In this document: piece by piece, positions 3,001 through 6,000 of the stretch
Numbering within the stretch: position 1 is the stretch's first letter
How the letters are laid out: every line of letters begins with the position of its first letter
Origin: Candidatus Velthaea sp.
GTDB lineage: Bacteria > Vulcanimicrobiota > Vulcanimicrobiia > Vulcanimicrobiales > Vulcanimicrobiaceae
Direction of reading: 5' to 3'
Length of the DNA: 26,013 bases
NCBI GenBank assembly: GCA_050012475.1
Contig: JBEKHC010000076.1
Span: 1-26,013 of the forward strand
Position numbers: made by a program

Positions 3001-6000
3001 TGTCCGCGCCGCAAGCGCTTGACGACATACGGATAACCCGATGCCGTGAGTTCGCCGGGGCGCCACTCGCGTGCAATCAGCAGCGCATCGTCGCCGGCCC
3101 AGACCGCCTGCTGTTTGCCGCGCGGCAGCGCGAAACCGCCGCGAACGAAGCGGCGAGTCGCCAGATCGAATTCGCGCACGCTCGACGCATCCTCGCCGCC
3201 GTCGGACAGCGCGATCAAACAGCGCCGGCGGCTGGGCGAGTCGCAATCGGCGCCCTGCCAGACCCAGTTCTGCCCTTCGGCTCGCGCCAATTCGTCGAGA
3301 TCGAGGACGGTCGTCCACGCCGGCGCCGAACTTGCGTAGCCGGCGATCGTCGTCGTTCGCCAAATGCCGCGAACGTGCTTGGCGTCTTGCCAGAAGTTGT
3401 ACACCCGTCCGCCGATGATGTCCGGCAGCGGAATCCGGTCTTTGGCCGCGTTGATTGCCAGCGCTTGGGCCTGGAAGCGCGCAAAATGCGGATCGCTGCG
3501 CAGCACGGCGAGCGTTCGCGCATCTTCGGCTCGCACCCAGCTGCGGGCGCGCGCGCCGTTGACGTCTTCGAGCCAGAGAAACGGATCGGCTCCGGCATGC
3601 GCACCCGCTCGTTGGGCAACGGCGGCCGCGAACGTACCGATGATGAGGCACACGCAAGCGGCAACAAGTGCGAGGCCGCGCGCGCGGCTGCGAAACGTCA
3701 CGATGATGGCGAACCTTTCTCCTGGGTGACCGAGGGCATCGCTTCGCTGCCCGCCGGCGAGCGACTGCAAAGGGCCGCCGGGACAGCCGTCGCGATCGCG
3801 CGGATTGATCCGAGCTCGGCGCGCCGGTTCGGGTTGGTGGCCCTTCGTCACGCGGGCAAACCGTGCAACGAGCGAAACCGCGCCCACGAAATCAGACGAA
3901 TCCACACCAGACGCCGGCCCTAGTTCCGGCGGCGCCCAGCGGCCTGATCGAGCAGCGGAAGCCGGGCGTCGATGTGCAATCGCTTTCACGTGTCCAACAT
4001 CGCCGATGAACGTGCCAACAGCCTGGCATGGTAACAAATCGAACGGAATCGACGCGTTCATGCTCGATCGCGACCGAGCAAAGGCTGTCGGAACGCACAA
4101 CGTTCCCATCGTCTGCCGCCGGGGCTTTTCGCGTTCCGTCCGGCCGCGGGGCGCGGTGTGGCGTAAGCTCAAGGATGAGGCATACGAACGCTACGGCTTG
4201 GCGCGCGGGCATCGCAGCTTCGTCGACGCCGCGGGGCACCGGCATGCCGCGTTTACCGTCGACCACCTCGTTCCGATCGAGTTGGGCGGTGCACCGAGCG
4301 ACCTGCGAAACTTATGGCCTCAGCCGCAAGCCGCCGCAAAGCGCAAGGACGAGGTCGAAAACGCCCTTCACAATCTCGTCTGCGACGGCCGGATCCAACT
4401 CGAAGCCGCGCAACGCGCGATCGCGCACGATTGGAAAACCGCGCTTGCCGAAGTTCTGCGCTGAGCGCGGGGGCGAAACAAAGTACGCATAATTTTTTTT
4501 CGCGAACACAAGCCGGTGGTTCGCGGCCTCGCGTTCGATCGATTTGAGCTCGATCGTTGAACGATGTCGGCTTCAAAGCGCTGCCGACCGTGTTACGGGC
4601 GTCCGGCAGCACCCGAGCGAGGCTTGCCGTTCGAAGGACCGCCCGGCGTTCCTTCGGTTCTGATCGGCGAACGTCGTCGTGCAGTCTGCCATGCATCTGG
4701 CACTGCGATAGCGTAGCCTTTCGGTATGACCACTTCTCCCCGCACCGGCTCATGGTTCTGAGCGTAGCGATTACCGACGAGCTCACCCCGCGCCAGCGGG
4801 AAGCCGTCGCTCACCGCGGCGCCAATTTGCTGCTCGAGGCGGTCCCCGGCTCGGGGAAGACGCGCGTCATCGCCGCCCGCTGCATGGCGCTGCTCGCCGA
4901 GGGGATCGCTGCCTCGGAAATCCTCTTGCTGACGTTCTCGCGCCGCGCGGCGGGGGAGTTGCGGGACCGGCTGGCGCGCGCGCTGCCGCACGCCGCATTG
5001 CCCGAGATTCGCACCTTTCATGGCTTCGCCGCGCAGCTGCTGGCCGAGACAGGGACCGCCGGTCATTCGCGGCGCTTGCTCTCCGAGCCGGCCCAGCGCG
5101 CAATGCTCGAGTACGCGATCGGCTCGACCACGCTTGCATCCCTGCCCGCCGACGTTCGGCGCTCGTCCCTCTTCCGTGAAGCCGCCGGCGCGCGCATCGC
5201 GGATCTGCGCCGCTCCGCACCTGCAGCGTTAGCGCAACTCGCCCAACGGGCAACCCCGCGAATCGCGGATCTGCTCCAGCTCGCGCAGGCCCAAACGCGC
5301 CTGCGCGATCGGCTTGGCGTCGCCGACTACGACGACCTCGTCGCCTGCGCCCTCGAGCTGGCCTCAACACCGGACAGCGCCCTCGCGCGCGCGCTGCGCG
5401 GCCGTTACCGCCACGTGCTCGTCGACGAGTTTCAAGATACGGACGCGCAGCAGCTTGCGCTTGTGGAGCGGCTCGGCGGCGAAGTATTCGCGGTCGGCGA
5501 CTCGGCCCAGGCGATCTACGGCTTTCGCGGCGCCGCGCGCGACGCGTTGATGCGAGCGCGCACGGCGTTGACGATGACAACGCTTCCGCTCGACGAGAGC
5601 TTTCGCTGCCCGGCGGCCGTGTGCGAGCTCGCCCGCGGCGTCTGGCCCTCCCGGCCCGCGTTGCATTCGGGCACCGGCCGGGCGGGCGACGTTTCGTTTC
5701 AGCGCGCGTCGTCGCCGCGCGATGAGGCCGCACATATCGGCGAATTGATCGCCGATGCCGTCGATGACGGCACCCCCGAGCGGGAAATCGCCGTTCTGGT
5801 GCGCAGCGCCGAGCCGCTGGCGCGGCTGGTCGAGCAGGAGTTGCGTTCGCGCGGTGTTGCGGTCGCCCGCCGGGGCGGCGAAAACGTGCTCGACGATCTC
5901 GCCGTTGACGCCATCTGCGCGGCGCTCAGCGCGCTGGCCGATCCCGCCGACCACGCGGGCTGGAATCGGGTGTTCGCGCACCCGGTCCACGGGATCGCGC

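Follow-up and report, generated by a model that had tools for sequence, protein, structure and literature searches.

The window analysed here is a stretch of 26,013 nucleotides on a contig (JBEKHC010000076.1) of a Candidatus Velthaea sp. genome (G000). It carries a tandem pair of AdnAB-like helicase-nuclease genes, an exonuclease gene of the RNase T/DnaQ kind, a prolyl oligopeptidase gene and a small open reading frame, together with three exact copies of the palindrome TGCCA-N6-TGGCA, hereafter box 2 (Table 1). Shuffled versions of the window are expected to hold 0.54 copies, and 4 of 100 shuffles reach three. The copy in front of the helicase-nuclease pair, TGCCATGCATCTGGCA, lies where the initial annotation had placed it.

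Table 1. Box 2 copies, predicted promoter elements and genes in the 26,013-nucleotide window.
Feature	Position	Strand	Basis or remark
Prolyl oligopeptidase (S9) gene	1566..3905	-	Pfam
Third exact box 2	4013..4028		direction unsure
Small ORF with HNH-like motif	4060..4464	+	alternative start 4006 or 4060
Box 2 of the AdnAB-like operon promoter	4687..4702	+	exact match
Predicted -10 hexamer TAGCCT	4714..4719	+	exactly 11 nt after the box
Putative short ORF, 11 codons and stop	4726..4761	+	read from the sequence
AdnA-like helicase-nuclease (UvrD helicase and PD-(D/E)XK)	4752..7688	+	Pfam
AdnB-like helicase-nuclease (UvrD helicase and PD-(D/E)XK)	7689..10883	+	Pfam, ORF list
Box 2 of the RNase T/DnaQ-like exonuclease promoter	15360..15375	+	exact match
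Predicted -10 hexamer TATCGT	15387..15392	+	11 nt past the box
Putative short ORF, 12 codons and stop	15402..15440	+	read from the sequence
RNase_T-family exonuclease gene	15431..16159	+	Pfam PF00929, E 3e-23

Both proteins of the AdnAB-like locus (window 4687-10883) match UvrD-helicase (E 2e-47 and 6e-48), UvrD_C and PDDEXK_1 (E 3e-27 and 2e-20) in Pfam, and the second gene begins immediately past the stop codon of the first. At the level of Pfam domains, the locus has the AdnAB-type layout of adjacent subunits that each combine a UvrD-like motor with a PD-(D/E)XK nuclease domain. An ATG lies 6 nt after the predicted -10 hexamer and opens a short ORF that overlaps the adnA-like start and is possibly a leaderless upstream ORF. 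Comparable short ORFs are present at the loci of two relatives, G002 and G007. Among genomes of the own family, a sister family and a third family, box 2 stands before the adnA-like gene in 3 of 4, 5 of 5 (8/9 for these two families) and 0 of 10 genomes, respectively; the copies are exact in G002, G007 and three of the five sister-family genomes, and the other two sister-family genomes have a one-mismatch box. A search of genome contigs with the AdnA-like protein returned only generic UvrD-family matches in unrelated organisms and was set aside.

The exonuclease locus is built alike. A short ORF begins 9 nt after the predicted -10 hexamer and overlaps the GTG start at 15431, and the box is found before the RNase_T ortholog in all 12 own-family genomes (11 exact, one with one mismatch). 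The third family has Cheo-type LexA boxes, not box 2, before a distant exonuclease homolog. The direction of the third box is less clear: no TANNNT follows at +11 on the plus strand, and on the minus strand GATGTT stands at +11, facing the S9 peptidase gene. Possible targets are this gene and the small ORF on the other side, for which no Pfam match was found.

The whole genome (5.36 Mb, 64% GC) contains ten exact copies of box 2, compared with 0-5 copies for each other half-site spacing from N0 to N12 and four for the swapped arrangement TGGCA-N6-TGCCA. On gene calls from our own simple caller (5024 genes, 87.6% coding), seven copies are intergenic and the remaining three lie at most 16 bp from a called start, so that all ten fall in 5' regions, gene starts being dependent on the caller. 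This reproduces the seven intergenic and three genic copies counted earlier; the earlier one-mismatch counts of 19 against 87 are nearly the same in our recount (21 intergenic, 85 genic). Two of the ten exact sites, on C10 (inside fliF) and on C75, are without the promoter architecture described below. A literature search for the TGCCA-N6-TGGCA motif found no description of it.

Box 2 outnumbers its swapped half-sites by 168 to 24 in 24 own-family relatives and by 36 to 14 in five sister-family relatives, and the counts are 19 and 22 in eleven third-family relatives. The swapped arrangement was used in place of the pattern read backward, which was rejected as a control since it consists of different 5-mers. 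Hence, the earlier caveat that the palindrome is not over-represented against a reversed control goes back to a poor control.

The spacing between box 2 and a -10 hexamer is fixed. G000 and its relatives together provide 85 unique exact sites; over the 170 orientations of these, TANNNT occurs exactly 11 nt after TGGCA in 38 versus 0-7 at any other offset, and ANNNT at offset 11 in 61. In G000 alone, boxes with at most one mismatch yield 14 TANNNT matches at this offset versus 0-1 at each of 12 other offsets. Boxes with two mismatches gave a distribution that is flat over the offsets and was taken as noise; the genes they precede, such as msrB and a serA-like gene, were left out of the regulon. 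On the downstream side, the start codon lies exactly 6 nt past the hexamer at 35 of 126 oriented sites and 7 nt past it at 16 of 126. On the upstream side, the box spans about -39 to -24, which is the place of the absent -35 element, and a matrix of the box sites revealed no resemblance to the -35 consensus at this position. Because the 11-nt register is rigid and there is no -35 hexamer, box 2 belongs to the promoter itself and is no operator that could be placed at will. TGCCA-N6-TGGCA is thus a real promoter element in the position of the -35 box, with an unvarying distance to the housekeeping-type -10 hexamer that follows. As the predicted transcription start often is the start codon itself, many box 2 genes appear to be leaderless. 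With the strict rule TGGCA-N11-TANNNT-N6-start, the starts of transcription and translation of leaderless genes in these genomes can be predicted to the base.

Genes of DNA repair and recombination stand behind these promoters, namely recA, ssb, the AdnAB-like pair and the RNase_T exonuclease; the full regulon would comprise recA, ssb, the AdnAB-like end-resection pair, the RNase T-like exonuclease and HNH, LAGLIDADG, Uma2 and IS605-type TnpB genes. Relatives add a UDG and an Ada/MGMT fusion. Pfam agrees with the target list of the initial annotation (the tandem UvrD and PD-(D/E)XK pair, RNase_T, two TnpB, HNH, Uma2, RecA, LexA and SSB). At recA, 21 of 23 genomes of the own family and all five of the sister family have the box (26/28 in total), always facing recA and with NANNNT at +11; it is found in 0 of 2 third-family genomes. 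In G000, recA has a box 2 promoter close by and a Cheo box farther away, an arrangement that recalls mycobacterial recA, which has two promoters. Exact boxes occur at the ssb and lexA loci of G008 and G012. That the box stands before lexA, as claimed earlier, is right insofar as it is present at the locus, but it sits in the leader of the LexA-controlled transcript and no good -10 hexamer faces lexA. In G000, the hexamer belonging to this box points away from lexA, toward a divergent LysM gene. The palindrome marks a gene set that is conserved in relatives, and our results support the earlier proposal of a second DNA-damage gene set that is distinct from the LexA (Cheo-box) set.

The candidate regulator, which the initial annotation had left as a guess and which is proposed here from its distribution among genomes, is a 325-aa wHTH-WYL-WCX protein encoded outside the window (contig C63 of G000, 6586-7560), here called the C63 protein and its orthologs clade C. 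Pfam matches WYL (E 4e-19) and WCX (E 4e-13), and an AlphaFold model (pLDDT 75) shows a wHTH at residues 9-70, a helical region, WYL at 142-218 and WCX at 245-324, so that all three domains expected of such a regulator are found between Pfam and the model. By fold, PafB (E 8e-16) and DriD (E 1e-15) match best, with the repressors BrxR and CapW behind (E 1e-9 to 1e-7); a phmmer search of PDB sequences returned DriD and PafBC-type chains only, DriD at 1e-8. The recognition helix reads T-R-S/T-x-R-R-Y and varies little or not at all among 25 clade C orthologs. Four arginines of the WYL domain (R175, R188, R198 and R202) are invariant in the C63 orthologs, which is merely suggestive with regard to sensing of single-stranded DNA.

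No box lies near the clade C gene, which gives no clue to autoregulation. In all five sister-family genomes, the gene of a paralogous WYL clade bears an exact box at its promoter, and in G008, G023 and G024 a gene of this clade directly follows the box-driven RNase_T gene. Two other groups were rejected as candidates: the WYL group with the strongest Pfam scores (including a protein encoded on C22 of G000), which extends to the third family and has no box in its vicinity, and the clade of a C13 protein, which outside the third family is found in G000 and G003 only and does not match the distribution of the box.

Full-length clade C orthologs are present in 22 of 24 own-family, 5 of 5 sister-family and 0 of 11 third-family relatives. 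In a sample of 150 genomes of the phylum, clade C is found in 69/71 genomes of the own family, 1/1 of the sister family and 0/78 from 19 other families; for the sister family overall, the figure is 6/6. Candidate regulator and motif thus co-occur across genomes. Only two own-family genomes, G005 and G110, are without any WYL match; both are also without the box at recA and show no excess of the box over its swapped control (1 vs 0 and 4 vs 5). All other own-family genomes examined have the box at recA, in G016 with two mismatches. These losses, together with two sister families that use the box and a third that does not, provide a natural comparison. In G024 and G154 the box at recA is kept and only the paralogous WYL clade was seen, so either this clade also binds the box, as it may in some relatives, or the clade C gene is perhaps unassembled there. 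The link between WYL protein and box is a correlation among related, non-independent genomes, and other genes might share the same distribution. Over the phylum, raw 16-mer counts fail to sort genomes by presence of the regulator; several distant families are in excess, too. Some of these families show the excess with neither a clade C protein nor a box at recA (0/5 loci in four such genomes, whose WYL homologs are 23-28% identical), so that something else may account for part of the raw excess.

We consider it probable, if well short of certain, that a WYL-domain activator docks at box 2 and runs a second DNA-damage response that does not depend on LexA. The composite promoter would consist of (G)TGCCA-N6-TGGCA(C), 11 nt, a TANNNT -10 hexamer, about 6 nt and the transcription start. 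A homodimeric wHTH-WYL-WCX factor, in G000 the C63 protein, would bind the palindrome. If it works like DriD, PafBC and DdaA, its WYL domain would sense single-stranded DNA, and the factor would then help the housekeeping RNA polymerase to start at promoters that should be weak by themselves. The box 2 regulon would run beside the LexA (Cheo-box) regulon. We infer box binding, activation rather than repression, sensing of single-stranded DNA and induction by damage from sequence and from these analogies.

Alternatively, box 2 could be the operator of a repressor, such as a WYL protein of the CapW/BrxR kind or another dimeric factor, which covers the -35 region and is released upon DNA damage. 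The initial annotation called the box an operator, which implies a repressor; the 11-nt register, the -35 position without a -35 element and the many leaderless genes make this the less likely half of its reading. A palindrome that overlaps the promoter core would suit a repressor, and the -35 element is often weak anyway in GC-rich leaderless promoters. At lexA, the box comes after the LexA-controlled start, where a roadblock would typically stand, and this placement would fit a repressor or roadblock better than an activator. Moreover, WYL repressors that sense single-stranded DNA exist and provide a precedent (PMC11662680). However, unrelated genes have the -10 hexamer at precisely the same distance from the box, which a repressor does not need and published WYL activators show, no -35-like hexamer is visible, and the C63 protein is closer to DriD and PafBC than to BrxR and CapW by both fold and sequence. 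We therefore regard repression as unlikely.

A further possibility is that box 2 does serve a damage regulon as a promoter element, yet is bound by a factor other than the WYL clade, the WYL correlation being a by-product of shared ancestry. The link is based on distribution in related genomes only, the clade C gene itself has no box, and the 16-mer excess extends to other families without clade C. Against this stand the two separate WYL losses in G005 and G110 that accompany the loss of the box at recA, the paralogous WYL gene that is itself under a box or in a box-driven operon, and a promoter geometry that matches known WYL activators; in the other families with an excess, none of the five recA loci examined in four genomes has a box. 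We rate this possibility as quite unlikely.

That LexA itself binds box 2 in a second recognition mode is very improbable. The genome encodes LexA and the box occurs at lexA and recA, but a single lexA was found in G000, and the lexA promoter bears a pair of Cheo-type boxes, neither with more than one mismatch, at 30 of 30 loci in three families. A LexA operator would be expected wherever a LexA ortholog occurs, including at its own promoter, and box 2 is not distributed in this way: the third family and G005 keep LexA (61-72% identical) with no box excess and no box at lexA, recA or adnA. LexA sites are not known to keep a fixed register with the -10 hexamer.

Hardly more plausible is a structural or mobile repeat, be it an IS200/IS605 end hairpin, a hairpin of the leader RNA or a sigma-54 -24 element, even though the box occurs at TnpB genes, three of them in G000 and several in G013, there within repeated IS sequence, and TGGCAC resembles the -24 element. 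The IS-end reading was dropped because no matching hairpin lies 3' of the TnpB genes (no box with up to one mismatch was found in the stretches examined downstream of the three G000 genes, whereas an IS end hairpin should have a relative at the other end of the element) and because the box precedes single-copy conserved housekeeping genes (recA, ssb, adnA); the RNA hairpin was dropped since the half-sites are fixed rather than covarying and lie upstream of the predicted start; and for sigma-54, GG at -24 with GC ten bases on at -12 is not found, TANNNT standing 11 nt after TGGCA instead of a conserved GC element at the required spacing.

IS605-type TnpB genes have box 2 promoters three times in G000 and at least three times in G013, and HNH, LAGLIDADG and Uma2 nuclease genes have them likewise. 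The spacer of the box inside the G013 IS sequence is identical to that of the G013 recA box. It is a tentative idea, and we hold it to be rather doubtful, that selfish nucleases have co-opted a host WYL regulon that senses single-stranded DNA, possibly with a two-level WYL cascade on top. On the co-option reading, RNA-guided TnpB nucleases and homing endonucleases would be switched on together with recA upon DNA damage. In the cascade, a constitutive WYL activator may turn on the paralogous WYL regulator that has a box at its own promoter. If true, the wiring of TnpB elements and homing endonucleases to the damage signal suggests a bearing on the timing of element activity.

Taking box 2 to be the site of a WYL activator, we compare it with known systems. 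DriD of Caulobacter crescentus is a homodimeric wHTH-3HB-WYL-WCX protein that activates an SOS-independent damage response. Its promoters have no -35 element, and its pseudo-palindrome overlaps the -35 position at a constant distance to the -10 element (PMC13004042). This promoter layout is common to both systems, and the C63 protein matches DriD by fold (E 1e-15) and by sequence (1e-8). The DriD site has the form 7-N7-7 (PMC13004042), whereas box 2 is 5-N6-5 with TGCCA and TGGCA. Furthermore, identity between the C63 protein and DriD is about 20%, the box 2 regulon is broader (recA, ssb, adnAB, mobile-element nucleases), and the role of the C63 protein is a predicted one.

PafBC of Actinobacteria, a case of sigma adaptation, controls most damage-induced genes beside LexA, and is described as acting at hybrid promoters that combine a -26 element with a canonical -10 and have no -35 element (PMC8635444). 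The right half-site of box 2, at about -28 to -24, occupies the place of this -26 element. PafBC is a heterodimer on an asymmetric element, whereas box 2 is symmetric and each WYL gene stands singly instead of in a tandem pair.

The WYL activator of the Moraxellaceae, DdaA, has a palindromic motif, CGWCA-N5-TGWCG, ahead of recA, ssb and uvrA (PMC12392091, PMC13010146). Its half-site pattern G-x-C-A ... T-G-x-C is common with box 2, but in box 2 the spacer has one base more and the half-sites differ from those of DdaA in their central base. DdaA is reported to largely replace the SOS system in Moraxellaceae (PMC12392091), whereas the box 2 regulon coexists with a LexA regulon. With the LexA (Cheo-box) SOS regulon, box 2 shares its theme and some loci (recA in G000, the lexA locus), but differs in motif, genome distribution and relation to the promoter. 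Motif, promoter architecture, regulon and candidate regulator are here all derived from sequence alone, and the box 2 regulon most likely adds a lineage to the WYL-activator damage responses known from Actinobacteria, Caulobacter and Moraxellaceae.

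The palindrome TGCCA-N6-TGGCA (hereafter the box, or box 2) is present in three exact copies in the window, one of which, TGCCATGCATCTGGCA at 4687-4702, lies 49 bp upstream of the called start of a UvrD/PD-(D/E)XK gene. This compares with 0.54 expected copies, and 4 of 100 dinucleotide shuffles reach three. The draft genome (5.36 Mb, 64% GC) contains ten exact copies at the N6 spacing, against 0–5 at each alternative spacing between N0 and N12 and four of a control with swapped half-sites (TGGCA-N6-TGCCA). Genes were called by a simple codon-bias method (5024 genes, 87.6% coding); by these calls seven of the ten are intergenic and the remaining three are no more than 16 bp away from a called start. 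Hence, all ten are found in 5' regions although the genome is 88% coding. The initial annotation of the box as a promoter-side palindrome is borne out and strengthened. With its flanks, the palindrome reads (G/A)TGCCA-N6-TGGCA(C/T), and one-mismatch boxes occur upstream of recA, upstream of ssb and at the lexA locus. The target genes named initially agree with Pfam (the UvrD/PDDEXK pair, RNase_T, two TnpB, HNH, Uma2, RecA, LexA and SSB), and both members of the tandem AdnAB-like pair contain UvrD-helicase, UvrD_C and PDDEXK_1 domains. The called GTG start of a cupredoxin gene overlaps the box preceding the RNase_T gene; since a signal-peptide-like sequence begins about 100 bp inside this ORF, the gene probably starts downstream of the called position, which would leave the box intergenic.

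Coordinates of box-associated features (C numbers, contigs of the draft genome; the window is C76)
Feature	Position	Sequence or remark
Box, AdnAB-like promoter	window 4687-4702	
Hexamer, AdnAB-like promoter	window 4714-4719	TAGCCT
ATG and short ORF, AdnAB-like promoter	window 4726-4761	ATG at 4726
Box, RNase_T promoter	window 15360-15375	
Hexamer, RNase_T promoter	window 15387-15392	TATCGT
ATG and short ORF, RNase_T promoter	window 15402-15440	ATG at 15402
Third exact box	window 4013	near-variant hexamer GATGTT on the minus strand
Cupredoxin gene	window 14905-15378	minus strand
lexA/LysM region	C95:5500-5760 (fetched locus L010:2000-2260)	divergent genes, one Cheo box each
LysM-domain gene	C95:5737-6024	Pfam LysM
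Clade C WYL gene	C63:6586-7560	325 aa, WYL + WCX (Pfam)
Box 2/Cheo box region	C31:25781-25893	TACGGT at +11

Sites aligned on the box share a fixed order of TGGCA, 11 unconserved bases, TANNNT, about 6 bases and very often ATG or GTG. Among 85 unique exact sites from this genome and its relatives (170 orientations), TANNNT is located at offset 11, counted in nucleotides after TGGCA, in 38 orientations and at any other offset from 0 to 39 in at most 7, and the looser ANNNT is found at offset 11 in 61. Within this genome taken alone, boxes with up to one mismatch are followed by TANNNT 14 times at offset 11 and 0–1 times at each of 12 other offsets; two-mismatch boxes gave a flat distribution over offsets and were discarded as noise. 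Of 126 oriented sites, which include orthologs and hence are not independent, 35 have a start codon exactly 6 nt past the hexamer and 16 have one 7 nt past it. If the hexamer occupies −12 to −7, the box extends from approximately −39 to −24 with its centre near −31.5, and the −35 position falls within the box spacer, which does not resemble a −35 consensus in the matrix of sites.

Five of the ten exact sites carry TANNNT at +11 and three carry near-variants (at +12 on C12, GAGAAT on C94 and the third exact box in the window). The boxes on C10, inside fliF, and on C75 have no hexamer variant and are probably chance occurrences. Both ATGs that follow the window hexamers open short ORFs of 11–12 codons overlapping the main-gene start, and similar short ORFs precede adnA in two relatives (G002 and G007); transcripts from both box-driven promoters would begin at or just before the short ORFs. 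In other genera, it is the main ORF that begins 6 nt after the hexamer, i.e., leaderless. In the window's genome, the gene-facing hexamers at +11 of recA (GAGTCT) and ssb (TATGCT) are followed by a Shine-Dalgarno leader. Furthermore, recA carries an exact Cheo box (the LexA-type site CGAACA-N2-TGTTCG) about 100 bp farther upstream than box 2 and so has two predicted promoters.

The comparison drew on orthologous loci of 40 relatives, namely 24 genomes of the window's own family, five from a sister family (same order) and 11 from a third family (same class). At recA, the box is directed toward the gene in every case. Genome-wide, the box outnumbers its swapped form 168 to 24 in the own family and 36 to 14 in the sister family, with no excess (19 against 22) in the third family; as the compared genomes are relatives, such counts overstate independence, and they include rows from genomes flagged unpublished (G011, G022, G024 and G036). 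The earlier concern that one relative lacks an excess over the reversed pattern falls away, since that pattern is built from other 5-mers, commoner in themselves, and is unsuitable as a control. The RNase_T homolog of the third family is distant (31–36% identity, mostly with open frames of about 600 aa) and has Cheo-type boxes with at most one mismatch in 11/11 genomes.

Box at orthologous loci (genomes with the box/genomes compared)
Locus	Own family	Sister family	Third family
RNase_T gene, box upstream	12/12 having the gene (11 exact, 1 one-mismatch)	gene not found	0/11
AdnA-like gene, box upstream	3/4	5/5	0/10
recA, at most one mismatch	21/23	5/5	0/2
lexA locus	17/23	0/4	0/3

In most genera of the own family, recA has box 2 but lacks any Cheo box up to a distance of 330 bp, and it may therefore have dropped out of the LexA regulon in them; the genus of the window retains both boxes.

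The genes directly behind boxes were collected from this genome, G007, G008, G012, G013 and three sister-family genomes. They include repair genes (recA, ssb, the RNase_T exonuclease and the AdnAB-like pair), an RNase_H_2-superfamily domain protein of at least about 480 aa (G012 and G013), a UDG-family protein, an Ada-like AraC/MGMT fusion with the box 130 bp upstream, and HNH, LAGLIDADG and Uma2 nucleases. TnpB genes follow boxes three times in the window's genome, once with a box that is degenerate (two mismatches), and three times in G013. In the latter, two IS copies have about 50 bp upstream of the box in common, which places the box inside the element, and at the IS605-type TnpB loci there (L190, L197, L201 and L198) the box spacer GGGTGT equals that of the recA box. 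No matching hairpin was found at the 3' ends of the TnpB genes of the window's genome. On C31, a one-mismatch box 2 precedes an exact Cheo box by about 80 bp, and the Cheo box lies 21 bp upstream of a 143-aa gene with no convincing Pfam match; both systems seem to control this gene.

The lexA locus is the single one with a repressor-like box position. In 30/30 lexA loci, a pair of Cheo-type boxes is present about 60 bp apart, neither box with more than one mismatch, and in most genera box 2 follows the proximal one by 54–55 bp, at about +12 to +27 of the LexA-controlled transcript, between a TATGGT-like −10 and the Shine-Dalgarno sequence. No lexA-facing −10 hexamer was found after the box. 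In this genome and three congeners, the +11 hexamer (TACGCT, TAGGCT or TACACT) is directed at the divergent LysM gene, which also has its own canonical promoter bearing a Cheo box; in other genera the hexamer in this direction is a weaker TAYAAC. Thus, two promoters would overlap head-on, and the box may drive the LysM gene, hinder lexA or do both.

WYL domains (PF13280) occur in 40 of 41 genomes, and the alignable wHTH-WYL-WCX proteins form three clades in a tree of 31 proteins, from which one further, too distant WYL group was left out. Clade C includes the 325-aa protein encoded on C63, whose full-length orthologs (45–91% identity) are present in 22/24 own-family, 5/5 sister-family and 0/11 third-family relatives. 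In an evenly drawn phylum sample of 151 genomes, clade C was detected at E ≤1e-40 in 69/71 own-family genomes, 1/1 of the sister family and 0/78 of 19 other families. This distribution matches that of the box; that of the remaining WYL groups does not. The recognition helix (T42 R43 S/T x R46 R47 Y48) is invariant or nearly so among 25 orthologs from both families, which fits a conserved target. An AlphaFold model from the ortholog alignment (mean pLDDT 75, low at residues 78–138) comprises a wHTH, a helical region, WYL and WCX. Foldseek places PafB (E 8e-16), DriD (E 1e-15) and PafC first, with the repressors BrxR and CapW at 1e-9 to 1e-7, and phmmer against PDB sequences returned DriD and PafBC-type chains only. 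The regulator would most likely be this DriD/PafBC-like WYL protein, limited to the own and sister families, which are the only members of their order in the sample. Genomes of distant families (e.g., G062, G056, G054 and G087) also show a 4- to 13-fold box excess over the swapped form; among the counts in such families are 32 vs 3, 27 vs 4, 18 vs 3 and 27 vs 2. Clade C is absent from them, and a check of recA in four of these genomes gave the box at 0/5 loci.

Two own-family genomes, G005 (91% complete) and G110 (96% complete), have no WYL match at all. Their recA genes lack the box even at two mismatches, and neither shows an excess over the swapped form (1 vs 0 and 4 vs 5); G110 has an exact Cheo box in place of box 2. 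Every other own-family genome examined has the box at recA, G016 at two mismatches only.

Clade B, the sister of clade C, is present in 5/5 sister-family and 9/24 own-family relatives and was not found in the window's genome. In the sister family the promoter of its gene bears an exact box, and in G008, G023 and G024 the gene lies directly downstream of the box-driven RNase_T gene. G024 and G154 have clade B only, yet keep the recA box. The same box may thus also be recognised by clade B, or else these draft assemblies may lack clade C; the gene order and the clade-B-only statements rest partly on G024, which is flagged unpublished. Around the clade B gene of three sister-family genomes (G025:C34, G026:C32 and G028:C10; loci L213, L222 and L243-L245), several boxes cluster within about 20 kb and precede conserved 182–208 aa proteins without Pfam match, a glyoxalase and a hydrolase, possibly a small island of the damage response or a mobile one.

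The initial annotation proposed the box as the operator of a second DNA-damage regulon. The regulon is supported; the operator is the less likely part, since a palindrome-to-−10 distance fixed to the base pair before unrelated genes, without a −35 element, is unlike a freely placed operator such as the LexA site. The box is better described as the predicted activator-binding half of a −35-less promoter. This architecture is the layout published for WYL-domain activators: PafBC is described as recognising a −26 element (−23 to −28) adjoining a canonical −10 element (PMC8635444), and DdaA of Moraxellaceae as binding CGWCA-N5-TGWCG upstream of recA, ssb and uvrA (PMC12392091; PMC13010146). Within this known kind of system, the motif is new.
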